Assembly (NCBI GenBank): GCA_964587415.1
Contig: CAZPLG010000001.1
Span: 1-39,630, forward strand
Direction: 5' to 3'
DNA length: 39,630 nt
DNA from: an uncultured Dehalococcoidales bacterium
GTDB taxonomy: Bacteria; Chloroflexota; Dehalococcoidia; Dehalococcoidales; BS750m-G39
Positions 3,363 through 37,246 of the stretch are shown here, piece by piece (position 1 is the stretch's first letter; every line of letters begins with the position of its first letter). The notes under the pieces are model-generated. The model worked only from the letters and a program-made list of their open reading frames with translations. It made no database searches and was not told the DNA's origin. The position numbers were made by a program, and so were the translations under genes.

Positions 3363-3448
3363 TCAGAGTTGCCAAAAACCACCCTAACCTAGTATCCTCT
3401 ATGAGAAAGTCTAAGTGAGACGAAAGCCCGCGGATATATCAGGGGGAG

Positions 3449-3549
3449 TCTAAGAGGAAGAATACCCTCTAAGGGTGGGCAGGGCGGGTCAGAAAGACGT
3501 TTGCCAACAGAGTGGGGTGGTGAGTGGGACAACAAAGCGCACCCCACCC
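3449..3549. repeat. Copy 1 of the dispersed mosaic intergenic repeat (G-rich arm orientation)
   Basis: tctaagagg..ccctctaagGGGTGGGCAGGGCGGGtcagaaagacgt is nearly identical to 29417-29452. G4 motif at 3473-3488. Followed by a 9-bp hairpin ggtggggtg/caccccacc. Confidence 0.8.
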
Positions 3550-3590
3550 TGCCTGAGAATCCCAAAAATTAAGGGGGTAAGGGTGATAAG

Positions 3591-4333: not shown

Positions 4334-4372
4334 TTCTAACGATTCCAGAAGTCAGCCTCCATACTCAATAAT

Positions 4373-4381
4373 ATTATAGCA
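4373..4381 (-). promoter_or_regulatory. Candidate extended -10 promoter for rsfS
   Basis: The minus strand reads TGcTATAAT, about 40 nt upstream of the rsfS start. Confidence 0.4.
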
Positions 4382-4383
4382 TA

Positions 4384-4492
4384 CCACCCCCCGTCTTATA
4401 TCTTTTCTCACCACCCCCCAGGTTAAGGAGTTTATCTCATTAGGGCGGGCGGGTTGGGTCAGAAATACGTACGCAAAGCAAGGTGGGGTGGC
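4384..4492. repeat. Copy 2 of the dispersed mosaic repeat (short version)
   Basis: C-rich left part ccaccccccgtcttatatctttt. Then ccaggttaaggagtttatctcattaGGGCGGGCGGGTTGGGtcagaaatacgtacgc..ggtggggtgg. G4 motif at 4443-4458. Confidence 0.8.
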
Positions 4493-4515
4493 AGGGACAC
4501 CCCCTAACGAGAGTA

Positions 4516-4524
4516 TGCTATAAT
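4516..4524 (+). promoter_or_regulatory. Candidate extended -10 promoter for the 4552 gene
   Basis: TGcTATAAT lies 27 nt upstream of the ATG. SD-like gagagg in between. Confidence 0.45.
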
Positions 4525-4551
4525 TATGTTAACCACTCGTAGAGAGGCAAA

Positions 4552-5379
4552 ATGGAAAAACTGCTCTTCGGCACGGGCGGCACCCCCCACACCGCCAAGA
4601 CCCGGACGGCCATAGACGGCATCAAGCGCATCGCCGAGCTTGGATTAGGCTGCATGGAACTCGAGTTCGTCTACGGCGTCAGGATGGCCGAAAACAGCGC
4701 CCGCCTGGTGGCGGAAACGGCCCAAAGCGAAGGCGTCAGGCTCTCGGCTCACGGCCCCTACTACATCAACCTCAACGCCCGCGAGCCGGAAAAAATAGTC
4801 GCCAGCCAGGAAAGAATAATCCAGACCGCCCGCATCGGCGCCCTTTGCGGTGCCGAGAGCATCGTCTTCCACGCCGCTTTCTACCTTGGCGACCCTCCGG
4901 GAAAAGCCTATCAGGCGGTCAAGAAGAACCTGGCCGAGGTTATGAACCAGCTCAAAAAAGAAGAAAACAGGGTCTGGGTCAGGCCCGAGGTCATGGGCAA
5001 GACCAGCCAGTTCGGCGATATCGACGAAATCATAAACCTGTGCAACGAGCTGGATGGGGTCGGTATCTGCATGGACTTCGCCCACTGGCACGCCCGCAGC
5101 GGGCAGGCCAACTCCTACCCCGAGTTCGTCGCCGTACTGGAGCAGATAAAAAACGGCCTGGGGGAACAGGCAATAGCCAACATGCATATCCACGTCTCCG
5201 GTATCGCCTACGGCAAGAAGGGGGAGCGAAAACACCTCAACCTCTCTGACTCCGACCTGCGCTATGGAGAACTCCTCCAGGCGCTCAAGGACTACGGGGC
5301 TAAAGGACTGGTAATCTGCGAAAGCCCCAGCCTGGAAGAAGACGCCCTCCTCCTCCAGGAAAGCTACCACCGCCTCTAA
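4552..5379 (+). CDS. Xylose-isomerase-like TIM-barrel protein, endonuclease IV (AP endonuclease family 2)-related
   Basis: 275-aa ORF. Pattern LSAHGPYYINL ... VFHAAFY ... RPEVMG ... CMDFAHWHA ... HIHVSG matches the metal-binding strands of the Nfo/TIM-barrel family. Confidence 0.75.
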   Translation: MEKLLFGTGGTPHTAKTRTAIDGIKRIAELGLGCMELEFVYGVRMAENSARLVAETAQSEGVRLSAHGPYYINLNAREPEKIVASQERIIQTARIGALCGAESIVFHAAFYLGDPPGKAYQAVKKNLAEVMNQLKKEENRVWVRPEVMGKTSQFGDIDEIINLCNELDGVGICMDFAHWHARSGQANSYPEFVAVLEQIKNGLGEQAIANMHIHVSGIAYGKKGERKHLNLSDSDLRYGELLQALKDYGAKGLVICESPSLEEDALLLQESYHRL

Positions 5380-11497: not shown

Positions 11498-12310
11498 TTA
11501 GCCTGACTTCAGCCAGGCGCGATATAATTCTTTCTTGGATAACCCCGTCTCTTCGGCCAGCCCAGCCACCGCCTCTTTAGCCCCCACCCCACTCCGCCGC
11601 ATCTCTTGCAGTCGTTTTTCGATAGCCTTGGTAAGCTTCGGCTTCTCTGGCTCCTTTTGTCCGGCGATGACCAGGGTAAACTCCCCCCTGGGCTCGGCGA
11701 AGTGCTCCGCCGCCTGGCTCACCTTCCCCCGAAAGACTTCCTCGTGGAGCTTGGTCAGCTCGCGGCAGACGGCAATCTCCCGGTCACCCAGGACCTCCAG
11801 TATATCGGATAGCGCCGCCGTCAGGCGGTGCGGAGTCTCCAGAACGACGATGGTGGCCGGGTCGGCGTCAATTGATTTTAGCAGTTTTTTTCGGGCGCTG
11901 CCTTTATGCGGCAGAAAGCCTATATAGCGGAACCGCTCCGTATCCAGCCCCGAAACCGCCAGCGCCGTAACCACCACCGAGGCACCGGGAATAGGTATTA
12001 TGGGAATGCCCCGCCCGCTGGCGGCGACGACAAGCTCATGCCCCGGGTCGGATATGCCCGGCATACCCGCATCCGAAACCAGCGCCACGTCCCCCTCGCT
12101 TAAGCAATCCAGAATATAGCCCAGCTTGGTCAGTTTGTTGCGCTCATGATAGCTGGTGGTCGGTGTCTTGATATCATAGCTCGCCAGCAGTTGCTTGGTA
12201 CGGCGGGTATCTTCGGCAGCGATAAGCTTCACCTCACGCAGAGTCCGCAGGGCACGCAGGGAGATATCTTCCAGGTTGCCAATCGGGGTCGCCACAATAT
12301 AAAGAGGCAT
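11498..12310 (-). CDS. rsmI: 16S rRNA (cytidine1402-2'-O)-methyltransferase RsmI
   Basis: 270-aa ORF. LYIVATPIGNLEDIS tetrapyrrole-methylase-fold N-terminus. rsmI-metG-tatD synteny as in Firmicutes. Confidence 0.92.
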   Translation of the reverse strand: MPLYIVATPIGNLEDISLRALRTLREVKLIAAEDTRRTKQLLASYDIKTPTTSYHERNKLTKLGYILDCLSEGDVALVSDAGMPGISDPGHELVVAASGRGIPIIPIPGASVVVTALAVSGLDTERFRYIGFLPHKGSARKKLLKSIDADPATIVVLETPHRLTAALSDILEVLGDREIAVCRELTKLHEEVFRGKVSQAAEHFAEPRGEFTLVIAGQKEPEKPKLTKAIEKRLQEMRRSGVGAKEAVAGLAEETGLSKKELYRAWLKSG

Positions 12311-12377
12311 GGTTTTTATCCGCCCGATTTTTGCTATTATAGCGCATAGCTAGGTTCTAGTCCACTGTGGAGTTTGA

Positions 12378-12693
12378 CCACCCCACCCCCACCACCTTGT
12401 TATGCGGAGGTCTTTCTTTCCCACCCAATGCCCACCCTATAAGGGTTAGACCCTTATATATCTCTTATATGGGTTACGCCCTACCCCCGTGTCATTCCCG
12501 TGCAGACGGGAATCTAGTTTCCCCCTTTGTAAAAGCCCGCCTGCCAAAGCCTTGTGTGGCGGACAGGGGGGATTAAGGGGGATTTTCCTCAAAAGGGCAG
12601 TGGGCGGGAATAGATAAAATCGGGGTGGGGGGCAACGTGCCTCCAGGTTAAGGAGTTTAACTCATTAGGGCGGGCTGGGTGGGACGAAAAACC
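12378..12693. repeat. Copy 3 of the dispersed mosaic repeat (largest, composite, with inverted arms)
   Basis: Left arm CCCACCCAATGCCCACCC (12420-12437) plus hairpin 12439-12457. Internal hairpin attcccgt-gcag-acgggaat (12494-12513). Internal gggcagtgggcgggaatagataaaatcgg. Right arm ccaggttaaggagtttaactcattaGGGCGGGCTGGGTGGG (12643-12683). Confidence 0.85.
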
Positions 12694-12696
12694 TCC

Positions 12697-12725
12697 TTGA
12701 CTTTGCTCAACCCCTTTGTTATAGT
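12697..12725 (+). promoter_or_regulatory. Candidate sigma-70 promoter of the guaB3-like gene
   Basis: TTGACT (12697-12702), 17-nt spacer containing TG, TATAGT (12720-12725). ATG at 12747 preceded by aagaagg. Confidence 0.6.
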
Positions 12726-12746
12726 TTTGGTTTAAGAAGGTGCGAG

Positions 12747-15414: not shown

Positions 15415-15750
15415 TTAAGCATGCTTTTCGGCGTAATCGCCCGCTATGGGCATCTTAATCTTCTCGCCCTGGTAAGCTTTTACCATCAGTATTATCCAGA
15501 GGACAAAAACGAACACCCAGAGAATCCAGCCGAAAACCCAGCCCACAATCGGTATCCAGAAAAGGATGGCGTAGACCACGCTGATGGCGCCGAAGACGAT
15601 GAGCGACTGTATGGCGTGAAAGCGCACGAACTTGTCCTTCTTCTCCAGAATCAGGAATGCCAGCCCGGTTACCCATAAAAGTAAGTAGCACAGTAATCCG
15701 GCAACGTTGGGCTTCAGCCCGGTGCTCGCTTTGCTCCTCGCTTGAGCCAT
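15415..15750 (-). CDS. DUF4870-like small integral membrane protein (paralog A)
   Basis: 111-aa ORF. NVAGLLCY..W.TGL.FL.LEKKDKFVRFHAIQS motif and 3 predicted TM helices. Confidence 0.75.
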   Translation of the reverse strand: MAQARSKASTGLKPNVAGLLCYLLLWVTGLAFLILEKKDKFVRFHAIQSLIVFGAISVVYAILFWIPIVGWVFGWILWVFVFVLWIILMVKAYQGEKIKMPIAGDYAEKHA

Positions 15751-15759
15751 CGCGCTACC

Positions 15760-16116
15760 TTATTTAGCGTATTTCTCGGCCAAATCCCCGGATATGGGCA
15801 GCTTATATTTTTCGCCCTTGTAGGCCTTAACCATGAGCACTATCCACAGAATCAGGGCACACAGCCCGACGAGATAGATTAGGATAAGGAAAAGTATCCA
15901 GATAAAGGGAATCCAGGTCAAAATCCACAATACAAGGTTTACCACACTAAAGGCGCCAAAGACGATTATGGACTGTATGGCGTGAAAGCGCACGAATTTG
16001 TCCTTCGGCTCAAGGAGCAGAAAAACCAGCCCGCTTACCCACCCCAGCACGTAGCACAGTAAGCCGGCAACATTCGGCTCCAGGCCGGTGCCTGTTTTGC
16101 CTTTATTTTCAGCCAT
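15760..16116 (-). CDS. DUF4870-like small integral membrane protein (paralog B)
   Basis: 118-aa ORF, clearly homologous to 15415-15750 at both termini (KDKFVRFHAIQS ... MVKAYxGEKxKxPIxGDxAEK). aaggagg SD. Confidence 0.75.
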   Translation of the reverse strand: MAENKGKTGTGLEPNVAGLLCYVLGWVSGLVFLLLEPKDKFVRFHAIQSIIVFGAFSVVNLVLWILTWIPFIWILFLILIYLVGLCALILWIVLMVKAYKGEKYKLPISGDLAEKYAK

Positions 16117-16225: not shown

Positions 16226-16541
16226 AATTAAATATCGTTAAAGGCTGGGAACGAGATTAGTAGGCCCCCAGCGAGGCTAGCAGAGAGCCGGGTTGAGGTG
16301 AAAACCGGCGCTGGCGTAGGGGTTGAATGGACTCGGGAGCTGCAAACCGAAAGGCCTTAATTCTTAATAAAAAGGGCGAGTAGGCTTTGCCGGAAAGGGT
16401 ACCGTTATTAAAACCCAGGGTATCGCTCCAGAATATCGAAGCCGTACCTGAAAAGAGATGACCCTTCGGAGGAAGGGTTAACTAGGGTGGCACCGCGAAG
16501 CATTAACCTTTCGCCCCTATCGGGCGAGGGGTTATTTTTTT
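16226..16541 (+). promoter_or_regulatory. T-box riboswitch leader with tryptophan (UGG) specifier
   Basis: - Stem I elements: AGTA (16259-16262), AGAGAG (16282-16287), distal hairpin gccgg-gttgaggtgaaaa-ccggc (16287-16309).
- Specifier loop GAA-TGG-A, with UGG at 16328-16330.
- T-box sequence aactaGGGTGGcACCGCG (16480-16497).
- Terminator at 16507-16541. Confidence 0.85.
16507..16541 (+). terminator. T-box-controlled intrinsic terminator
   Basis: 10-bp stem cctttcgccc / gggcgagggg (two G-U pairs), loop ctatc, then ttattttttt. SD agggag and the trpE ATG follow. Confidence 0.8.
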
Positions 16542-16552
16542 AGGGAGAAAAA

Positions 16553-17989
16553 ATGTACCATCCTGACTTAAAAGAATATAGAAAGCTTAAAAGACAAGGC
16601 AAACTGGTGCCCGTCTACCGCGAGATAGCCGCTGGCGGCGAAACGCCCGTCTCCGCGCTATTGAAGATAAAGCGCGGCGACTACGCCTTTCTCTTGGAGA
16701 GCGTCGAGGGCGGTCAGGGCACGGCCGGCTACAGCTTTATCGGCACCGAGCCCTACCGTGTGCTCAGAACCAGGGAGAGCGATAAAACCAATCCTTTGGA
16801 TTCCCTCGCCGAAGAGCTGCCCAGGCACAGGCTGGTCGAGATAAAGGGCTTGCCCGATTTCTGCGGCGGCGCTGTCGGCTACCTCGGCTACGAGACAATC
16901 CGCCGCCTGGAAGAGTTACCCTCGCCCGAATCAGACCCGCTGGCCCTGCCCGAGTCGGTCTTTATGCTCGTGGACACTTTGCTCATCTTCGACCACGCTA
17001 ATAATAAGATTAAAATCGTCAGCCTGGCTCCCCCCGACGGCGATGACGCTTACAATGCAGCAGTGGAGAAAATAGACGACCTGGCGGAGAGGCTAAAACA
17101 GCCCTTAGAGCCGCCCCACTCCACCCCATCCCCCCACAAGTCGAGCGGGACCCCAGAAATCGTCTCTAACCTCACCAGAGCTGAATTTGAGGCTAATGTG
17201 GCCAAAGCCAGGGAATACATCATCGAGGGCGAGGCCATTCAGATTGTGCTCTCCCAGCGCCTCAGTCGGCGCACTACTGCCCAAGCTTTAGACATCTATA
17301 AAGCGCTGCGGCGCATCAACCCCTCCCCCTACATGTTCTTCCTTGACTTAAAGGGCTTCCAGGTTATCGGTTCCTCACCGGAGATTCTGGTCCGGGCCAT
17401 AGACGGCAGGGTAACCACCCGCCCGCTGGCGGGGACAAGGCCAAGAGGCAAGACGCCAGGTGAGGACAAGAGGCTGGAAGAAGAATTGCGCGCCGACGAA
17501 AAGGAGCGCGCCGAGCACATCATGCTCGTCGACCTGGGGCGCAACGACATCGGCCGGGTAAGCCTGCCCGGCACGGTCGAGGTCAGCGAACTTATGGACG
17601 TGGAACGCTACTCCCACGTCATGCATTTGGTCACCAACGTGGACGGTAAACTAAGGCCCGACCTGACGCCGATTGACGCCTTAGGCGCCTGCTTCCCCGC
17701 GGGCACGGTATCGGGCGCGCCCAAAATCCGCGCCATGGAGGTCATCGCCGAGCTTGAGCCCGACAAGCGAGGACCTTACGCCGGCTGCGTCGGCTACTTC
17801 AGCTTCTCCGGCGCCATGGACACTGCCATCACCATCAGGACTATCGTCATGGTTGACGGCACCGCCCACGTCCAGGCGGGCGCGGGCATCGTCTATGACA
17901 GCGTGCCGTCGCGGGAATATGAGGAAACGATGAACAAGGCCCGCGCTTTGCTCAAGGCAATCGAGGAAGCCGAGGCTTCAGAGGAATAG
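16553..17989 (+). CDS. trpE: Anthranilate synthase component I
   Basis: 478-aa ORF. Chorismate-binding domain motifs (LSQRL, GTRPRG, AGAGIVYDS). Confidence 0.96.
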   Translation: MYHPDLKEYRKLKRQGKLVPVYREIAAGGETPVSALLKIKRGDYAFLLESVEGGQGTAGYSFIGTEPYRVLRTRESDKTNPLDSLAEELPRHRLVEIKGLPDFCGGAVGYLGYETIRRLEELPSPESDPLALPESVFMLVDTLLIFDHANNKIKIVSLAPPDGDDAYNAAVEKIDDLAERLKQPLEPPHSTPSPHKSSGTPEIVSNLTRAEFEANVAKAREYIIEGEAIQIVLSQRLSRRTTAQALDIYKALRRINPSPYMFFLDLKGFQVIGSSPEILVRAIDGRVTTRPLAGTRPRGKTPGEDKRLEEELRADEKERAEHIMLVDLGRNDIGRVSLPGTVEVSELMDVERYSHVMHLVTNVDGKLRPDLTPIDALGACFPAGTVSGAPKIRAMEVIAELEPDKRGPYAGCVGYFSFSGAMDTAITIRTIVMVDGTAHVQAGAGIVYDSVPSREYEETMNKARALLKAIEEAEASEE

Positions 17990-17990
17990 A

Positions 17991-18563
17991 ATGCTTTTAA
18001 TCATTGATAATTATGATAGCTTCACCTACAACCTCTTCCAGTACTTGAGCGAGCTGGGCGAAGAGGTGCGGGTAGTGCGCAATGATAAAATAACCTTAGA
18101 GGAGATTGAGCAAATGAGCCCGGAGCGCATCGTCATCTCCCCCGGCCCCTCCACCCCCCTCAATGCCGGCATCTCCAACGATGTTATAAAGCACTTCGGG
18201 GACAGGTTACCCATACTCGGCGTCTGCCTGGGCCACCAGTGTATCGGCCACAGCTACGGGGGCTTTTTCGGCCCGGCCAGGACGATTATGCACGGCAAGT
18301 CCTCGCTCATTTACCACAGCGACACGGGCGTTTTCTCTGGCCTGCCCAACCCCTTCCCCGCCATCCGTTACCACTCTTTGATGGTCGCCCGCGAAGGCCT
18401 CCCCGACTGCCTGGAAATAACCGCCTGGACGGAAGACAACACCATCATGGGCATGCGCCACCGCCAACACCCGGTGGAAGGCGTCCAGTTCCACCCCGAG
18501 TCCTTCATGACCCATAACGGGAAGGAATTATTGAGCAATTTTTTGAGGGGAGGCAGGACATGA
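17991..18563 (+). CDS. trpG: Anthranilate synthase component II (glutamine amidotransferase)
   Basis: 190-aa ORF. GVCLGHQ catalytic Cys, HPES. Starts 1 nt after the trpE stop. Confidence 0.95.
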   Translation: MLLIIDNYDSFTYNLFQYLSELGEEVRVVRNDKITLEEIEQMSPERIVISPGPSTPLNAGISNDVIKHFGDRLPILGVCLGHQCIGHSYGGFFGPARTIMHGKSSLIYHSDTGVFSGLPNPFPAIRYHSLMVAREGLPDCLEITAWTEDNTIMGMRHRQHPVEGVQFHPESFMTHNGKELLSNFLRGGRT

Positions 18564-19582
18564 TTAAAGAAGCCATTGCTTTACTAATAGACGGCAAATC
18601 GCTGACTATGGAGCAGGCGTCCGAGGTCATGGAAGAAATAACCACCGGCCAGCTGACCCCCACCCAGTTCGGCGCCTTCGTTACCGCCTTAAGGATAAAG
18701 GGCGAGAGCGCCGACGAGATTGCGGGCTTAGCCAGCGTCATGCGGGCCAAGTCGGTGAGGGTGAAGACGAACGACTCAGTGATAGATATCGTCGGCACGG
18801 GCGGCGATAACTCCGGCAGCTTTAACATCTCCACCGCCGCCGCTTTTGTCGCCGCCGGCGCGGGCATCAAGGTGGCCAAGCACAACAACCGCGCCATGAC
18901 CAGCCAGTGCGGTAGCGCCGATGTCCTGGAGGCATTAAGGATGAAGATTGAGCTCGACGCCAGCCAAGTGCAAGACTGCATTGAAAAGGTCGGCATCGGC
19001 TTCATGTTCGCTCCCCTCTTCCACCCCTCGATGAAGTTCGCCGCCGCCCCCCGCCGCGAGCTGGGCGTGCGCACCGTCTTTAACATCCTCGGCCCCCTCA
19101 CCAACCCGGCATTGGCCGACTCACAGGTCTTGGGCGTACCCGGCCCGGACTTAGGCGAAAAGATGGCGCGGGTGCTCCAGCGCCTGGGCTCAAAGCGGGC
19201 ACTGGTCGTCCACGGCTTAAACGGCATGGACGAAATCACGGTATCGGGAAAATCGCGCGTCTGGGAGCTTAGTGACGGCGAGATAACCGAATACGATATT
19301 TCACCCAAGGACTTCGGCATAGCCGAGGCTGGAACGGAGACACTGGCGGGCGGGACATCGGAGGAAAACGCTAAAATACTGCGCTCGGTGCTGGAGGGTG
19401 AAAAGGGGCCCAAAAGAGACGCCGCGGTGATGAACGCCGCCGCCGGCATCGCCTTGAGTCGCAGCGCTAAAGGCGTACCCGCACTGAAGGAAGCCGCCGA
19501 AATAGCCATAGAGACGATAGACAGCGGCAAGGCGCTGGAAAAACTGGAAAAACTAATAACGCTCAGTCAGAGTTACGGATAG
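18560..19582 (+). CDS. trpD: Anthranilate phosphoribosyltransferase
   Basis: 340-aa ORF. GTGGD motif, KHNNRA. ATGA overlap with trpG. Confidence 0.95.
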   Translation: MIKEAIALLIDGKSLTMEQASEVMEEITTGQLTPTQFGAFVTALRIKGESADEIAGLASVMRAKSVRVKTNDSVIDIVGTGGDNSGSFNISTAAAFVAAGAGIKVAKHNNRAMTSQCGSADVLEALRMKIELDASQVQDCIEKVGIGFMFAPLFHPSMKFAAAPRRELGVRTVFNILGPLTNPALADSQVLGVPGPDLGEKMARVLQRLGSKRALVVHGLNGMDEITVSGKSRVWELSDGEITEYDISPKDFGIAEAGTETLAGGTSEENAKILRSVLEGEKGPKRDAAVMNAAAGIALSRSAKGVPALKEAAEIAIETIDSGKALEKLEKLITLSQSYG

Positions 19583-29217: not shown

Positions 29218-29252
29218 ACTACAATCTAGACCGACCTTCTCGCTCTTTACCG

Positions 29253-29472
29253 CCCCACCCCAGGTTCTTCTTCCCACCCAATACCCACCCTATAAGGGTT
29301 AGACCCTTATATATCTCTTATCTGGGATACGCCCCACACCCCCGCCCCCTCTTAAACACCCCCAAAAGGGAGGGGTGGAGTGGCCGTAACCCGGAAGGAA
29401 TTCTAGAGGGAGAATCCCCTCTAAGGGTGGGTAGGGCGGGTCAGAAAAACGTACGCTCAACAAGGTGGGGGC
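29253..29472. repeat. Copy 4 of the dispersed mosaic repeat (complete, with inverted arms)
   Basis: Left arm CCCACCCAATACCCACCC (29273-29290) plus hairpin 29292-29310. Right side has hairpin 29404-29423 plus arm GGGTGGGTAGGGCGGG (29425-29440) and tcagaaaaacgtacgc..ggtggggg. Confidence 0.85.
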
Positions 29473-29492
29473 TGTATAATCCAGGGTGAAGC

Positions 29493-29969
29493 TTATTCTT
29501 CTTCGTGCCCGGATGTCCTCCCGTACAAAGCTCCGTTTCCGCCGGTAAAAAAGAAAACGGGGCTATCGATTCTGTGGAACAAGAGGGGAAGATGTTTCAT
29601 GCCTCGGGGAACAAAGATGAGACTGCTTTCCGTGATGATATATTGTTCATCCTCAAGCCAGAGCTCGATTTCGGCATTCAAATCACGCGGATTTTCCCTT
29701 CGACTGCCCACGAATCCCAGAATTTCATCGAAATCATGGGTATGGGCTATCTCCATCTCTACCGCTTCCGCCCCGTGCTTTTCCCAGAGCCAGACACAAT
29801 CAAAGTAAAAGGACCCTTTTAGTACACTCTCGTCTAGCGATAACATACGGGTGGCCTCGAAGTAATTACCGGCCTGCCTCTGCTCCTCCATCCTTTTGAG
29901 AAATCCCGCGGGAGGTGGCTCAGAAAAACATTCTGTTGTGATGTATTTGGCATACTTCTTTTGGGACAC
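29493..29969 (-). CDS. Cupin-like hypothetical protein
   Basis: 158-aa ORF. Cupin-type motifs AHTHDFDEILGF and FVPRGMKHLP. G+C visibly lower than the neighbours. aggagg SD upstream. Confidence 0.65.
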   Translation of the reverse strand: MSQKKYAKYITTECFSEPPPAGFLKRMEEQRQAGNYFEATRMLSLDESVLKGSFYFDCVWLWEKHGAEAVEMEIAHTHDFDEILGFVGSRRENPRDLNAEIELWLEDEQYIITESSLIFVPRGMKHLPLLFHRIDSPVFFFTGGNGALYGRTSGHEEE

Positions 29970-30118
29970 TTCCTCATTTCCTCCTTCTTAGTCTATCGTT
30001 TCAGAAAAGTCCGGTAATTTCAAGGGCTTTTCACGAATTAAGGCTAATTTAACCCGAAGACTAAAGCAAAATCCACCGAAGCCTTTGGTCGCTGGTTCGA
30101 ACCCACCCACATAGCCCT

Positions 30119-31588
30119 CTAGCCCGGCACTTCTATGATTATGGTCGTGCCCTCGCCCGGCGTCGACTTTACCTCAAGTGTTCCCCCCAGCAGCCGGGCT
30201 CTCTCCCGCATCCCCACCAGCCCCAGCTTGCCGCTGCGGGGCAGGTCGTCCACCCTCCCCACCAGCTCGAAACCCTGCCCGTTGTCGCTGATGGTCACCC
30301 TCACCTTATCCTTGGTGAAATCGATGACCACGCTGGCTTCCGGAGCCTGCGCGTGCCGCCGGATATTGTTCAGCGCCTCCTGGACGATGCGGAAAAGCGA
30401 AGACTCGAATTCGGGCGCAAAACGCTTCTCGTCGCCGAGCACCTCCAGCTTGCTGCCGATGCCGTCGTACTCCTGCATGTCTTTCATCAGCGAACGCAGG
30501 GCGGGAATCAAGCCCAGGTCGTCCAACAGCGAAGGGCGTAAGTCCTGCACGAAGCGGTGCACCCCCTGCACCCCCCGGTTGAGCTGCGCCTGCAGGTCCT
30601 TTAAGAACAAGACCTCGTTGGGAGCCAGCCCCGACTTCTTGCGCACGAAGTTGTCCAGCTGCCGGGATAGAGAACCGAGCAACTGCGCCGTGTCGTCATG
30701 CAGCTCGCGGGCGATGCGCTTGCGCTCTTCTTCCTGCGCCTGGGTAATCTCCTGCAGGTAGTAGCGCAAATTCTCCTGCATTCGCTTCTCCTGGGTGACG
30801 TTACGGGCGATATTGTGAAAGCCCCTGGCTTCGCCTTCGCCGCTAATCAGGTTGGTGGAGACCATGCATATCGCCTCCGAGCCGTTTTTTTTAATCATCC
30901 TCAGCTCGTAGGGCAGTTCCACATGGGTGTGCTGCACCAGCCTACGCCCCACCTCCCGCGCCAAGGCCAGGCTCTCCTCGCCCAGGAAAGACTTCACGTT
31001 CATCCTCAGCAGCTCTTCCACCGGGTAGCCGCTCAAGGTAGCGGCGGCTTTATTGGCCGTCTGGATGTTGCCCTCAAGGTCGTGCGACCAGATGGCGTCG
31101 TAAGCCCCCTCGAACAAAGCCCTGAAGCTATTCTCCGACTCGTTCAGCGCTTCTTCGGCGTGCTTGCGCTCGGTGATATCCTCCAGTGTTTCGATGGCGC
31201 CGATTATCTGCCCGTCGTTATCTCTGATGGGGCTGGCGGTAAAATGGAGCCACTTTCCCTCCTCGCCCATTTCGGGGAAAAAGTCCTCGGCTTCATAAGC
31301 GCCCTCGATAAGGCTCGACTTCCCGTGTCGCCCCGTGTAGTAGCCGGCAATCTCGCTCAAGGGCGCGCCGTCGACGATGAAATCGGCCATGGCCGGCCTC
31401 TTCTCGGTATAGAACGGCCGCCACTGCTGGTCGGTGCCGATAACCTGATCCCGCTTTATGCCCGAAAGCGCTTCCAGGGCGGTGTTCCAGTAGATGACGC
31501 GGTGCTGCTTATTGATGACGAATGATGGAATAGAAGAGCCGTCGATAATCTTGGCCAGCATCTCCGAACCCGGTAAACTTTGCGGCAT
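30119..31588 (-). CDS. Cytoplasmic sensor histidine kinase, two PAS domains + HisKA_3 + HATPase_c (NarX/DegS class)
   Basis: 489-aa ORF with no TM segment. H-box ARELHDDTAQ. ATP-lid motifs DNGQGF and GLVGMRERA. Confidence 0.9.
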   Translation of the reverse strand: MPQSLPGSEMLAKIIDGSSIPSFVINKQHRVIYWNTALEALSGIKRDQVIGTDQQWRPFYTEKRPAMADFIVDGAPLSEIAGYYTGRHGKSSLIEGAYEAEDFFPEMGEEGKWLHFTASPIRDNDGQIIGAIETLEDITERKHAEEALNESENSFRALFEGAYDAIWSHDLEGNIQTANKAAATLSGYPVEELLRMNVKSFLGEESLALAREVGRRLVQHTHVELPYELRMIKKNGSEAICMVSTNLISGEGEARGFHNIARNVTQEKRMQENLRYYLQEITQAQEEERKRIARELHDDTAQLLGSLSRQLDNFVRKKSGLAPNEVLFLKDLQAQLNRGVQGVHRFVQDLRPSLLDDLGLIPALRSLMKDMQEYDGIGSKLEVLGDEKRFAPEFESSLFRIVQEALNNIRRHAQAPEASVVIDFTKDKVRVTISDNGQGFELVGRVDDLPRSGKLGLVGMRERARLLGGTLEVKSTPGEGTTIIIEVPG

Positions 31589-35641: not shown

Positions 35642-35669
35642 AAGATAGACGCAGACTAGAAGCTAAAAA

Positions 35670-35704
35670 GGGTGTCGAGATATTATCGGCACCCTCTTCT
35701 TTTA
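35670..35704 (+). terminator. Rho-independent terminator of the nuoEFG-like operon
   Basis: 8-bp stem gggtgtcg / cggcaccc (one G-U), 9-nt loop, then tcttctttta. Confidence 0.65.
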
Positions 35705-35705
35705 T

Positions 35706-35870
35706 CCCGACCACCCACACCGATTTTATCTATTCCCACCCGCCGCCCTTTTAAGGTAAAGAGGGGCTACGCCCCTCTTAAACACCCCCAAAGGGGGGGC
35801 GGGGTGGGGGCGTAACCCCCAGGTTAAGGAGTTTACTCATTAGGGCGGGCTGGGGTGGGACAAAAAACCC
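35706..35870. repeat. Copy 5 of the dispersed mosaic repeat
   Basis: ccgattttatctattCCCACCCGCCGCCC is the reverse complement of 12595-12623. tacgcccctcttaaacacccccaaaggg is shared with 29328-29370. Right arm ccaggttaaggagtttactcattaGGGCGGGCTGGGGTGGG (35819-35859). Confidence 0.85.
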
Positions 35871-37246
35871 TGGGGTGGCGGAGGCCCGTCCAGCCACTTA
35901 TCGCTTTTCCGTTGTTTGCGGTACTCCCGGTAGGTAACGGAAAAGGCCACTATAAAGCTGAGAGCGTCCGAAATCGGCAGCGACAACCAGACCCCGTTCA
36001 GCCCCAGCAGGTAACGCAAGAGGTATAACAGGGGAATGAAGAAGATAAGCTGGCGCACCAGCGACAGAATCAGGGCCATCATGCCCCTGGACAGCCCCTG
36101 AAAGGTGGTGACGAACATAACGCTCGGCCCGATGAGGAACATGGTGCAGAGCATGATGCGCATGGCCGGCACCGTAACCGCCAGCAACTCCGGATCATCG
36201 CTGAAGATACCAATTATCTGGGGAGCGAAAATCTCGATACACACGACCCCCACGCCGAGCACCAGCGCAATGCTCACCGAGGCTAATTTAACCGCCCTCC
36301 ACAGGCGCTTGAGGTAACCGGCGCCGAAATTAAAGCCGATAATAGGCAACAGCCCGTCGGACAGCCCGAAGACGGGCATAAAAGCTAGGTCGGTAACGCG
36401 CATCGCCAGGCCCACGGCGGCGATGGATATAGACCCGAAGGAAGACACCACTATGTTGAACAGGATAAAGCACAGGCTCTCCGTCACCTGCAGTATGGTC
36501 GAGGGAGCGCCGACGCGGTAAATATCCTTCAATATGGACATATTGGGCTTGAGGTTGGCGAATTTTATCCGGTAAGCCGTCCGGTGGCCCAGCAGGAAAT
36601 AAAGGGCGATAGCCGCCCCGAACGACTGCGCGATAATCGTCGCCAGCGCCGCTCCGCGGACACCCATCTCCGGGAAGGGCCCCAGGCCGAGAATCATAAA
36701 GGGATCCAGAATGATGTTGATAACGCTGGCGGTTATCATGATAACCATCGGTTTGACGGCATCGCCCGAACCGCGGATAAGGCTGCTGGTCACCAGGGCG
36801 AAGATTATCTGCGGAGCTCCGAAAACAACGATAGTCAGATACTGGGTGCCGTATTCCATGATATCCGGCGTGGCGCCGAAGGCGGTCAGGATAGTCTGCG
36901 AGAAGAAAGCGGCCACCGTCATGAAGAGGAGACCCCAGAAGGCGCTCAAAAAGAATATCTGTCCGGCGACGCGGTTGGTGGCTTGGGGATTATTCTCGCC
37001 GAAGCGCCGGGAGACGAGAGCGGCAACACCGATACCGGTGCCGATTCCCATAGCCGCAAAAAGAATCTGGTAGGGAAACACTATCGTCAGTGCGGCTATA
37101 GCCCCGTGACCCAGTTTCGCCACCCAGAAGGTGTCGACGATGTTATAAAGACTGAGGGTTACGGTGGCGGCTATGCTGGGCAGGCTCAAACGGAGCAGCA
37201 GCCTGCCTAAAGGGGCATAACCCAATCTTTCGGTATATTCCTGCAT
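35840..37246 (-). CDS. MATE-family multidrug/compound efflux transporter
   Basis: 468-aa ORF, 12 hydrophobic segments, typical MATE N-terminus (LLRLSLPSIAATV). The last approx. 10 codons plus the stop codon lie inside repeat copy 5. Confidence 0.9.
   Translation of the reverse strand: MQEYTERLGYAPLGRLLLRLSLPSIAATVTLSLYNIVDTFWVAKLGHGAIAALTIVFPYQILFAAMGIGTGIGVAALVSRRFGENNPQATNRVAGQIFFLSAFWGLLFMTVAAFFSQTILTAFGATPDIMEYGTQYLTIVVFGAPQIIFALVTSSLIRGSGDAVKPMVIMITASVINIILDPFMILGLGPFPEMGVRGAALATIIAQSFGAAIALYFLLGHRTAYRIKFANLKPNMSILKDIYRVGAPSTILQVTESLCFILFNIVVSSFGSISIAAVGLAMRVTDLAFMPVFGLSDGLLPIIGFNFGAGYLKRLWRAVKLASVSIALVLGVGVVCIEIFAPQIIGIFSDDPELLAVTVPAMRIMLCTMFLIGPSVMFVTTFQGLSRGMMALILSLVRQLIFFIPLLYLLRYLLGLNGVWLSLPISDALSFIVAFSVTYREYRKQRKSDKWLDGPPPPQGFLSHPSPP

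Follow-up and report, generated by a model that had tools for sequence, protein, structure and literature searches.

The 220-bp element at 29253-29472 is a head-to-head doublet, composed of two units of an interspersed and modular family of intergenic repeats that extends across the Dehalococcoidales. The family is very abundant and previously undescribed in these uncultivated bacteria: nhmmer located ~60 units within 202 kb and 121 within 437 kb, the DNA coming from Dehalococcoidales genomes (at least 11 at species level) and related metagenome contigs. Each unit joins a hairpin to four G-runs, both of which appear to be kept by selection, which makes the family a promising natural candidate for a G-quadruplex (G4) that functions in bacteria. 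The first-pass annotation, made from the letters of this DNA, had described conserved G-run motifs flanked by hairpins, and did not recognise them as a high-copy, modular family resembling REP, REPIN and BIME repeats.

Units of the repeat family in the window

The window (the whole 39.6-kb stretch analysed) holds seven units at E < 1e-5 in nhmmer together with two modules of a further type, M4. A unit runs from a purine-rich stretch through a 7-9 bp hairpin, four G-runs and an A-rich stretch to a tail ending in GGTGGGG. The left arm of the doublet is an M3-type unit on the minus strand (29253..29340, E = 1.7e-14), comprising a reverse-complemented short tail (29253-29272), a C-rich tract that reads GGGTGGGTATTGGGTGGG on the minus strand (29273-29290), a hairpin with a 9-bp stem and a 3-nt loop (29291-29311), and a purine-rich flank with CGTATCCC up to ~29340. 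A central spacer module on the plus strand, M5 (29346..29392, CCCCTCTTAAACACCCCCAAAAGGGAGGGGTGG...GTAACCC), recurs at 35772-35818 and is partly deleted in the relative L077. The right arm is an M1-type unit on the plus strand (29382..29472, E = 9e-18) with the hairpin TAGAGGG-agaatc-CCCTCTA (29404-29423), the G-tract GGGTGGGTAGGGCGGG (29425-29440, plus strand), and an A-rich stretch and tail ACGTACGCTCAACAAGGTGGGGG to ~29470. Taken together, 29245-29480 folds as one long hairpin with z = -5 on both strands.

The inverted arms of ~70 nt recall a MITE, but the sequences bordering 29253-29472, TTTACCG and CTGTATA, form no obvious target-site duplication, and none of the loci examined within the 437 kb contained a related IS. 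No clean 'empty site' defines the ends of the element; L078 and L080 are without it, but their neighbouring genes differ too. On its C-rich strand, the M3 hairpin followed by TATCTCTTAT was flagged as terminator-like, 74 nt past the trpA stop, and short-read contigs end ~80 nt past trpA, roughly where the repeat starts. Such repeats explain intergenic breaks in short-read assemblies of these organisms. A promoter of the element's own (TGTATAAT, ~29464-29471) was rejected because TGTATAAT is not conserved in L077. The neighbouring gene (29493-29969, 158 aa) appears, from its sequence motifs, to be cupin-like and not a transposase.

Elsewhere in the window, a co-directional gap contains an M1-type singleton (3436..3530, plus strand, E = 2e-12) with its hairpin at 3451-3472 (TAAGAGG/CCTCTAA, 6/7 pairs), the G-tract GGGTGGGCAGGGCGGG at 3473-3488 on the plus strand and a tail to ~3525. 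An M2-type unit with a full tail (4405..4500, plus strand, E = 6e-20; hairpin 4424-4442, G-tract GGGCGGGCGGGTTGGG at 4443-4458, plus strand) lies upstream of TGCTATAAT (4516-4524) and of the gene at 4552-5379. The divergent gap 12311-12746 carries a doublet placed exactly between its two best promoter matches. One partner, an M3-type unit with a long tail (12381..12486, minus strand, E = 2e-21; C-tract 12420-12437, hairpin 12438-12458), points towards the promoter-like site 12364..12336 of the gene at 11498-12310; the other, an M2-type unit whose tail is deleted (12627..12695, plus strand; hairpin 12649-12667, G-tract GGGCGGGCTGGGTGGG at 12668-12683, plus strand), sits directly upstream of the promoter-like site 12697-12725. 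The same gap holds an M4-type module (12583..12632, plus strand) that reads GGGCAGTGGGCGGG, then AATAGATAAAATC, then GGGGTGGGGGG, with three close G-runs and a distant one. The second M4-type module (35711-35760) is part of a unit on the minus strand (35711..35782) with the C-tract CCCACCCGCCGCCC at 35736-35749 and the 9-bp hairpin AAGAGGGGC-TAC-GCCCCTCTT at 35759-35779. At 35793..35872 on the plus strand (E = 8e-16), a G-rich junction (35793-35810) precedes an M2-type unit with its hairpin at 35825-35842, the G-tract GGGCGGGCTGGGGTGGG at 35843-35859 (plus strand) and the short tail CCCTGGGGTGG; this segment and the called MatE ORF overlap in the ORF's final codons.

All of the G-run motifs listed in the first-pass annotation, five on the plus strand and C-rich versions at 12420-12437 and 29273-29290, were recovered where it had placed them, as was the right-arm hairpin. 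The hairpin it gave as ATAAGGG-ttaga-CCCTTAT is likewise present at 12439-12457 and 29292-29310, and is in fact a 9-bp stem (TATAAGGGT/ACCCTTATA) with a 3-nt loop. The weaker hairpins it mentioned elsewhere are TAAGAGG/CCTCTAA and TAAGGAG/CTCATTA, each with 6/7 pairs, the latter with a G.A mismatch at 4424-4442, 12649-12667 and 35825-35842. Its statement that every copy carries a canonical (G3 N1-4)x4 motif holds for the seven arms listed but not for the M4-type modules, whose closely spaced G3 runs number only three (GGGCAGTGGGCGGG / GGGCGGCGGGTGGG), a further G-run being distant, and which conserve GGGYGGYGGGYGGG without four short-range G3 runs. The motif at 35793-35810 and the M4 unit type had both been missed.

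Constraint on the G-runs and covariation of the hairpin

Counting both strands, the window contains nine (G3N1-4)x4 motifs, compared with 1.01 on average (sd 1.04) and at most 6 in 300 dinucleotide-preserving shuffles, and eight of the nine fall in five repeat-bearing intergenic regions. G4Hunter (window 25, threshold 1.5) does not discriminate in this DNA of 58% G+C: it flags many G/C-skewed stretches and misses several family motifs with A-rich flanks.

Constraint within the unit was measured in copies ascertained without reference to the G-tract. Non-consensus rates were 1.1% for the 3' arm of the hairpin, 2.2% for the G positions, 20% for the loops and 24-30% for the A-rich stretch and tail, so that the G positions are about tenfold less variable than the loops between them (Fisher p = 1.4e-9, an optimistic value because the copies are not phylogenetically independent). 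The four G-runs are therefore kept beyond the rest of the sequence, as had been proposed. Frequent uncompensated breaks, which would have spoken against this proposal, were not found: the canonical four-G-run tract is intact in 52 of 59 distinct hairpin-anchored copies and broken or interrupted in the other seven (12%). Loop lengths are 1/2/1, 1/4/1, 1/2/2 and 1/1/2, the first loop always being 1 nt, and the tract has the four runs of at least three G with loops of 1-7 nt that define a canonical putative quadruplex sequence. The only invariant columns among 28 M1 and M3 units are G-run columns, and substitutions between orthologous copies sit in the loops (GGGCGGCGGGTGGG to GGGTGGTGGGTGGG; GGGGTGGG to GGGTTGGG). 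The pattern expected of a selected G4, with G-runs kept while loops vary in sequence and length, is present, with the 12% of broken copies and the non-canonical M4 type set against it; the conservation of GGGYGGYGGGYGGG in M4 fits a G-rich recognition motif as well as it fits a G4. Naturally broken tracts include GGGTGGGGCAAAAC in L077 and GGACAGGCTGGGTTGGG in L016. In L077, a 94%-identical relative, the orthologue of the flagged right arm has suffered a 9-nt deletion that removes two G-runs and leaves the hairpin intact, and single copies are therefore dispensable.

The covariation of the hairpin, proposed from the few copies in the window, is strong in the larger set. In a gap-free alignment of the 9-bp type (n = 16 units), 97.2% of cells pair and five of the nine pairs have changed on both sides (18 cells); none of 500 shuffles reaches this level, and slid controls give 28-60%. 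RNAalifold applied to a plain MAFFT alignment of 28 units did not find the hairpin, since that alignment had put loops and stems out of register. Twelve cells are G.T wobbles that pair only on the G-rich strand, the other strand having A.C mismatches, which argues for pairing in single-stranded DNA or RNA rather than for a duplex cruciform or an i-motif. The earlier proposal of selection on structure is accordingly upheld for the hairpin and the G-runs but not for a cruciform, which is unlikely to be under selection since the two arms of the doublet belong to different subfamilies and are mismatched exactly at the loops.

For all seven window units, ViennaRNA run with both RNA and DNA parameters and with its G4 energy term, itself a model, returned a minimum-energy structure in which the hairpin adjoins a three-tetrad G4. 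Stem-loops stacked on the end of a parallel G4 are structurally established (PMC7756412). The tract may fold as a G4 or, on the complementary strand, an i-motif; within a doublet, pairing with the C-rich arm would work against G4 formation.

Distribution, arrangement and turnover

Only 3 of the 121 units lie inside called ORFs, the rest being extragenic. A 17-nt anchor on the hairpin side, outside the G-tract, has 27 copies in 11 Dehalococcoidales species-level MAGs; its remaining matches, in unrelated taxa, are due to chance, and the family is absent there. Units recur in independent assemblies (NCBI, JGI and Logan). The contigs come in part from salt-marsh and SMTZ samples (e.g., JGI 3300031698), and MAGs of the lineages concerned include JASFHK01, DATKYX01 and SOKR01. 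Rfam, searched at the gathering threshold and at E <= 1, gave no match at the repeats and only a T-box at 16238-16521, and ARAGORN found no tRNA. The units have no exact match in IMG/VR and no blastn match in PLSDB or INPHARED, and we found no literature report of G4 or REP families in Dehalococcoidia. A scan of the 2531 ORFs in the 437 kb of unit-rich DNA (tblastn and phmmer), using E. coli TnpA-REP (exact, verified against PDB 4ER8) and an IS200-like sequence as probes, gave no RAYT or IS200 transposase match at or below E = 0.08. In the same DNA no transposase of any kind was found adjoining units, and ten small ORFs with units on both sides matched only housekeeping families in a Pfam scan.

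The arrangement of units follows strict rules of polarity and orientation. Among adjacent inverted pairs, 19 have their heads facing and none their tails, and a further 13 pairs are in tandem. Singletons in co-directional gaps place the G-rich strand in the sense orientation in 13 cases and antisense in 2; several of these gaps are operon spacers of ~100 nt that a single unit fills, e.g., between panB and panD in L045. Divergent, promoter-bearing gaps, in which units are over-represented, make up 21 of the 51 occupied gaps (~40%). A general role as intrinsic terminator was considered and rejected, a U-rich 3' flank being found only in M3 on the C-rich strand. Individual positions may persist or turn over between relatives. 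L048 and L081/L086, in which the flanking genes are 79-85% identical, retain the M2 unit of position 12640 at the same site; its neighbouring modules differ between those loci, and the trpA site carries different modules in three close relatives.

Proposed explanation, alternatives and comparison with known systems

The best explanation, to which we assign an even chance, is that these are REP/REPIN/BIME-like repeats distributed throughout the Dehalococcoidales, in which a hairpin-quadruplex junction on the single-stranded G-rich strand is selected. The selected feature would be the fold that this strand adopts when single-stranded, in a transcript or in transiently unwound or replicating DNA: a 7-9 bp stem-loop, a linker of 0-1 nt and a short-looped, three-tetrad parallel G-quadruplex. 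Spread and homogenisation among loci would proceed by copy-and-paste or gene conversion through a trans-acting activity. Our best guess for this activity is an HUH/ssDNA-type enzyme, because such an enzyme would recognise a strand-specific hairpin and because no target duplication was seen. Copies may then last only where the fold does no harm or brings a benefit, namely just upstream of promoters in divergent gaps, past the stop codon in convergent gaps, and with the G-rich strand sense in co-directional gaps and operon spacers. In the sense orientation, the hairpin and an RNA G4 would block 3'-to-5' decay in the manner of E. coli REP. A copy turned the other way, with its C-rich strand sense, would present a Rho-loading or terminator-like signal. 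Transcription of the units upstream of promoters is not obvious, which means that no single RNA-level role covers all copies. More tentatively, and with the balance of probability against it, the junction may itself be the functional unit, bound as a folded single strand by a Dehalococcoidales protein, either a new ssDNA transposase or recombinase or a G4-dependent factor in transcription or RNA decay. If so, this would be the first prokaryotic repeat family to use a G-quadruplex, rather than a palindrome, as its conserved recognition element across an order-level clade.

Several of the same observations could arise from a REP/REPIN-type selfish element in which hairpin and G-tract are the signal of a single-copy HUH (RAYT-like or IS200/IS605-like) ssDNA transposase; the G-runs would be conserved because the enzyme reads them, and the G4 potential would be incidental. 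High extragenic copy number, the fixed 19:0 polarity of doublets, a strand-specific imperfect hairpin that covaries between subfamilies, and ends at 29253-29472 without obvious target-site duplication are all in keeping with it. So are the decay of single copies and the near-identical cores in species whose genes are 79-85% identical, as if copied from enzyme-recognisable masters, and REPIN/RAYT systems do persist vertically over very long times (PMC3116915; bioRxiv 10.1101/2021.07.10.451892). We nevertheless hold this account to be unlikely, as no RAYT or IS200-like ORF occurs among the 2531 ORFs of the 437 kb, the ten unit-flanked small ORFs are all housekeeping genes, a GTAG-type tetranucleotide is absent, and the tract loops vary (1-4 nt, and in sequence) while the G-runs do not, which is unusual for a linear protein-recognition site. 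Less probable still is a host cis-element that acts at the RNA level only, as a 3'-end or intercistronic stabiliser, terminator or insulator, with DNA structure and mobility irrelevant. The 13:2 sense bias in co-directional gaps, some of them ~100-nt operon spacers, the terminator-like C-rich strand of M3 74 nt past the trpA stop, the G.T wobbles typical of RNA helices and the M2 copy kept at an orthologous site in three species would all suit such an element. It does not account for the 21 of 51 gaps that are divergent, where units are found upstream of the best promoter matches, facing away from incoming transcription; moreover, M1 and M2 types are without a terminator-like U-tract, close relatives lose or swap copies, and the promoter-like TGTATAAT past the flagged element is not conserved.

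The tract can also be read as two GGGYGGG half-sites beside a palindrome, that is, as repeated sites for a dsDNA-binding protein such as a nucleoid-associated protein or global regulator, and both the many units abutting promoters and the retention of GGGYGGYGGGYGGG in M4 without four G3 runs agree with this. We regard it as very improbable: the half-sites are not at a constant distance but 1 to 4 nt apart, a symmetric duplex site would not be expected to show such strong rules of orientation and polarity, and the hairpin covaries rather than keeping its sequence and tolerates G.T but not A.C, which points to single-stranded pairing and not to a duplex recognition sequence. That the units merely reflect chance, the composition of a 58% G+C genome or faulty assembly has a negligible probability; G4Hunter at 1.5 does flag many G/C-skewed stretches across the window, but this reading is refuted by nine motifs against 1.0 expected, by recurrence in 11 species and in independent NCBI, JGI and Logan assemblies, and by significant covariation and positional constraint on the G-runs.

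It has long been asked whether G-quadruplexes in bacteria have a function or are only tolerated, and the evidence consists mostly of motif counts confounded by G+C content. With dozens to hundreds of copies per genome in many species, the family constitutes a natural replicated test of G4 function, whose value lies in the combination of tenfold G-run constraint, a covarying stem-loop with strand-specific wobbles, and strict polarity and orientation rules. It also shows that a REP/REPIN-like repeat system exists beyond the Proteobacteria, within a clade represented almost exclusively by MAGs, and provides lineage-marking sequence signatures, e.g., CCAGGTTAAGGAGTTTACTCATTAGGG.

Among known systems, the Neisseria pilE G4 (G3TG3TTG3TG3), attributed to Cahoon and Seifert, is reportedly of almost the same short-looped sequence class as GGGTGGGTAGGGTGGG, and is said to be a strand-specific DNA G4 that lies upstream of a gene and needs local transcription to form. 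It is, however, described as a single-copy, locus-specific recombination initiator, belonging to no repeat family and having no adjacent covarying hairpin. The E. coli HPG1/HPG2 'G-quadruplex-hairpin-duplex switch' (Kaplan et al. 2016, PMC5100583) shares with our family recurrent intergenic G4 motifs with conserved flanks and alternative hairpins, opposite-strand pairs less than 50 bp apart, and a C-rich stretch 5' of the G4. The E. coli motifs number only 16 + 7 copies and occupy mostly co-directional or convergent gaps, with one divergent copy, and their hairpin pairs the C-rich flank with the G-tract as a switch, whereas here a separate covarying stem-loop stands beside an intact G-tract. 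The rPQS of Methanomicrobiaceae (Chashchina et al. 2021, PMC8044849) are likewise interspersed, highly similar intergenic copies confined to one lineage, with an adjacent conserved element and sites near gene starts and ends. Their hosts are archaeal, however, what adjoins the PQS is a 3' C-track of 10-12 nt in competition with the G4 (hairpin or triplex), and no independent covarying hairpin, doublet polarity rule or subfamily structure is described there. GGGNATC-type repeats of Xanthomonas and Nostoc (Rehm et al. 2015, PMC4692102) are also non-coding, genome-wide and G4-forming, with exactly four G-tracts preferred and a strand and position bias relative to ORFs, and are transcribed. These are tandem heptamer microsatellites of variable unit number, under-represented between divergent ORFs, whereas the repeats described here have a fixed single tract in a ~90-nt unit with hairpin and tail, and are enriched in divergent gaps.

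The closest likeness is to the REP/REPIN/BIME repeats of Proteobacteria (Bertels & Rainey 2011, PMC3116915; PMC3337134). There, too, a genome carries short imperfect palindromes by the hundred outside its genes, inverted doublets keep a fixed polarity and fold up as a long hairpin, several unit types combine with spacer motifs into mosaic clusters, and the repeats persist vertically across related species as individual copies decay. The Dehalococcoidales units differ in that they occur in Chloroflexota hosts, without a RAYT gene in the DNA scanned, and are over-represented in divergent, promoter-bearing gaps. In place of a GTAG-type tetranucleotide they have a purine-rich, variable 5' flank (AAATAAGAGATAT, AGAAGGAATTC, CCAGG), and their conserved part is not the palindrome itself but the four-G-run tract 3' of the hairpin.

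Modular units in intergenic regions

Counting both strands, the window contains nine (G3N1-4)x4 motifs, whereas 300 dinucleotide-preserving shuffles of it average 1.01 ± 1.04 (maximum 6). Eight of the nine motifs fall within five intergenic regions (3363-3590, 4334-4551, 12311-12746, 29218-29492 and 35642-35839). All G-run motifs and hairpins listed by the first-pass annotation were confirmed, the hairpin beside the C-rich arms having nine base pairs and a 3-nt loop, TATAAGGGT-cta-ACCCTTATA in the G-rich-strand reading; a further motif at 35793-35810 had been overlooked. The assertion that every copy is canonical holds for the listed motifs but not for a fourth module type that had escaped notice, M4 (12583-12632 and 35711-35760), in whose tract no more than three G3 runs lie close together.

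Self-comparison of the window resolved the five regions into mosaics of a few short modules: M1 (3453-3500; 29405-29452), M2 (4415-4465; 12640-12693; 35816-35869), M3 (minus strand, 12418-12481; 29271-29334), M4 and a spacer module, M5. On the G-rich strand, M1, M2 and M3 share a common plan of G-rich/CGTAACCCC sequence, a purine-rich (often AAGGAG-like) stretch, a 7-9 bp hairpin, a 0-1 nt linker, a tract of four G-runs, an A-rich stretch and finally either ACGTACGC..AACAAGGTGGGGTGG or a short tail, CCTGGGGTGG. The element at 29253-29472 consists of a minus-strand M3 and a plus-strand M1 unit placed head to head with M5 between them; in single-stranded form it is predicted to fold as one long, branched hairpin (z about -5 for each strand). 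The MatE ORF as called (35840-37246, minus strand) extends into the M2 unit at 35840-35872, its last codons being encoded by the M2 tail and G-tract, and its true stop and C-terminus may differ among relatives.

The breadth of the family was explored with the 17-mer CCAGGTTAAGGAGTTTA, scanned against GTDB at one genome per species; it covers the left half of the M2 hairpin and is therefore blind to the G-tract. Full units were found at 26 of 66 loci (27 copies), from 11 Dehalococcoidales/Dehalococcoidia MAG species, the other 40 loci being bare chance matches in unrelated taxa. A profile search found about 60 units in 202 kb, and 121 units in 437 kb once orthologous and metagenome loci had been added. 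Nothing resembling the units was present in Rfam, IMG/VR, PLSDB or INPHARED, and we found no paper on such repeats in Dehalococcoidia. The uncultivated source organism is present in JGI sediment metagenomes, and short-read trpA contigs stop about 80 nt past the trpA stop codon, about where the repeat starts. A second, unrelated self-complementary short repeat, GAGATTGCTTCG...CGCAATGACA, recurs beside hairpin-G4 units in several Dehalococcoidales MAGs (loci L030, L054, L057 and L070, and L048 about 4950-5020). Elsewhere in the window, a T-box leader (16238-16521; 102.8 bits, gathering score 93) lies immediately upstream of the first ORF (16553-17989) of the trp/aro gene cluster, and a 176-nt direct repeat of 78% identity (15575-15750 and 15941-16116) reflects a tandem pair of small, paralogous minus-strand ORFs (15415-15750, 15760-16116).

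Constraint on the G-runs and the hairpin

To avoid circularity, the constraint analysis was limited to copies retrieved without reference to the tract. Among 26 full-length M2 copies found by the 17-mer, non-consensus rates were 1.1% in the hairpin 3' arm and 2.2% at the 12 G-run positions, compared to 20% in loop columns (Fisher p = 1.4e-9 for G positions versus loops), 24% in the A-rich stretch and 30% in the tail (p = 4e-28 for G positions versus these two combined). A profile of the 5' half only, with no tract, recovered 25 M1/M3 units, every one followed by a tract that was intact in 22, and a metagenome scan with the M3 hairpin alone yielded more copies. After pooling and de-duplication, four G3+ runs were kept in 52 of 59 hairpin-anchored copies, bearing out the claim that the runs are conserved. 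Loop lengths in the intact copies are 1/2/1 (18), 1/4/1 (18), 1/2/2 (14) and 1/1/2 (2), with a single-nucleotide first loop in every case, and substitutions between orthologous copies sit in the loops (GGGCGGCGGGTGGG to GGGTGGTGGGTGGG; GGGGTGGG to GGGTTGGG). The G-run columns are also the only invariant ones in an alignment of 28 M1/M3 units, which is weaker evidence because this set was partly ascertained through the tract. The seven broken tracts result from point changes or small deletions (loci L013, L016, L035 and L098), a 9-nt deletion (L077), a truncation (L054) and a self-complementary insert of 34 nt, CCTGCCTGCGCGTAGCCGCTTCGGCGAAGGCAGG, that separates G-runs three and four of an M2 unit in L026 (about 960-1000); the orthologue of that unit in L014 (about 5330-5360) is intact. 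This stem-forming insert could be compatible with a quadruplex-duplex hybrid.

Covariation was analysed in a gap-free alignment of 16 units sharing the 9-bp/3-nt geometry. Standard pairs occupy 97.2% of cells, and at five of the nine pairs both partners have changed (18 cells). Neither the observed pairing nor the covariation was reached in any of 500 column shuffles, and sliding the partner by 1 to 3 columns lowers pairing to 28-60%, so that the reported hairpin covariation is substantiated. The 9-bp stem variants include TATAAGGGT/ACCCTTATA, TATAGAGGT/ACCTCTGTA, AATAGAGAT/ATCTCTATT, TATAAAGGT/ACCTTTGTA and TATAGGGGT/ACCCCTGTA; the M1 stem is TAGAGGG/CCCTCTA, and that of M2, TAAGGAG/CTCATTA, has a fixed G.A mismatch. 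Twelve cells are G.T wobbles, which pair only on the G-rich strand and would be A.C mismatches on its complement. The helix thus appears to be selected on the G-rich strand, as single-stranded DNA or RNA, and the symmetric cruciform entertained in the first-pass annotation is disfavoured as the selected structure. Selection for pairing between the two arms of a doublet is further disfavoured by their membership of different subfamilies and by mismatches located precisely at the tract loops. With RNA as well as DNA parameters, ViennaRNA including its G4 term predicts for all seven window units a minimum free energy fold in which the hairpin immediately adjoins a three-tetrad G4; that a stem-loop can stack coaxially on the end of a parallel G4 is known from structural work (PMC7756412).

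Turnover at orthologous sites

The promoter-proximal M2 unit at 12640 occupies the same site in two other species (loci L048 and L081/L086), with a nearly identical core between flanking genes that are 79-85% identical; the window copy has lost its tail, and the modules upstream of the unit are unlike one another in all three species. Downstream of trpA, the doublet of the window recurs in L077 (TrpA 94% identical), where a 19-nt deletion shortens M5 and the 9-nt deletion costs the right arm two of its four G-runs. In L104, whose neighbouring cupin gene is 96% identical in nucleotide sequence, the left unit is different and the right one, of M3 type, continues into the same tail, indicating module replacement, probably by gene conversion through the shared tail. 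L079 (85%) carries an M3 unit at the same place with a different right unit, and the sites in L078 and L080 have no element and different neighbouring genes. With single copies gained, swapped and lost, the family is maintained as a population.

The 6.6-kb segment 29218-35840, bounded by family elements at both ends, carries the cupin-like gene, a PAS histidine kinase/response regulator pair and NuoE/F-like genes; it is missing in L078 (10771-10824), where trpA and the MatE gene lie 53 nt apart with no element. In L080 (W31_48 MAG), a large serine recombinase (17629-19296; Resolvase/Recombinase/Zn_ribbon_recom) adjoins the MatE gene in a region with no hairpin-G4 units. The close relative L077 lacks a stretch of about 110 nt (about 30005-30118) between the cupin-like and histidine kinase genes. 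The end of this stretch, GGTCGCTGGTTCGAACCCACCC (30087-30108), looks like a T-arm/3' fragment of a tRNA and could be an att remnant; ARAGORN called no tRNA there, and a minus-strand loop-1-7 G4 motif (30102-30125) overlaps this end.

Arrangement, mobilisation and relation to known repeats

Adjacent units at most 200 nt apart are heads-facing, with tails outward, in 19 cases, tandem in 13 and never tails-facing, a fixed polarity similar to that of REPIN doublets. Occupied gaps are divergent in 21 cases, co-directional in 18 and convergent in 12, so that divergent gaps are over-represented relative to their usual share among REPs. In the divergent gap 12311-12746 the doublet lies exactly between the two best sigma-70-like matches of a 9.5-kb stretch, each just past an outward-pointing tail, and in divergent gaps generally the end of a tail and the start codon of the gene it points at are about 50-130 nt apart. 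Co-directional singletons have the G-rich strand as the sense strand in 13 of 15 cases, and several fill operon spacers of about 100 nt (e.g., panB-panD in locus L045). The M3 hairpin and the TATCTCTTAT that follows it on the C-rich strand score as terminator-like 74 nt past the trpA stop, but termination was rejected as a shared property because M1 and M2 have no U-rich flank. An extended -10-like sequence, TGTATAAT (29464-29471), directly after the trpA-downstream doublet, points into the antisense of the cupin-like gene and is probably fortuitous, since it is not conserved in L077 or L104.

No credible RAYT or IS200-like match turned up when the 2531 ORFs of 437 kb of unit-rich DNA were searched with the exact E. 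coli TnpA-REP sequence (verified against PDB 4ER8) and an IS200-like probe. Ten small ORFs with units on their flanks proved to be housekeeping genes, and the 158-aa neighbour of the doublet at 29253-29472 is cupin-like in appearance. This doublet has no visible target-site duplication, a result more in keeping with HUH-type or recombinational spread than with a DDE-type MITE.

That these units form a genuine interspersed family, with its hairpin under selection and its G-runs kept by selection, is near-certain, and an artefact can practically be dismissed. The reading we favour, at about even confidence, is a REP/REPIN/BIME-like family in which the selected feature would be the strand-specific, predicted hairpin-quadruplex junction of the G-rich strand. 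The G-runs may matter through G4 folding or through being read by a protein, and the copies may be chiefly selfish or chiefly of use to the host, as barriers to RNA decay or as structures upstream of promoters. The organisation is like that of REP/REPIN/BIME elements (PMC3116915, PMC3337134), whereas the GTAG feature of REP/REPIN is absent from the Dehalococcoidales units; that they are REPINs proper, with incidental G4 potential, has the doublet polarity on its side and the variable loops between conserved G-runs to accommodate, and we consider it rather doubtful. An RNA-only cis-element would agree with wobble pairing and the sense-strand bias of singletons and would have to accommodate the divergent gaps, and is unlikely. 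Still less probable is a duplex protein-binding site, which would suit the many units that abut promoters and has to be set against a helix selected on one strand.

The family offers an unusually clean natural test of selection on bacterial G-quadruplexes. As recurrent intergenic G4-plus-hairpin motifs, its three nearest relatives are the E. coli HPG1/HPG2 "switch" motifs (PMC5100583), the Methanomicrobiaceae rPQS (PMC8044849) and the Xanthomonas/Nostoc GGGNATC repeats (PMC4692102). In contrast to these, the Dehalococcoidales family places an independent, covarying stem-loop next to an intact tract, comprises several subfamilies with only the G-runs in common, keeps a strict doublet polarity and spans an order-level clade.
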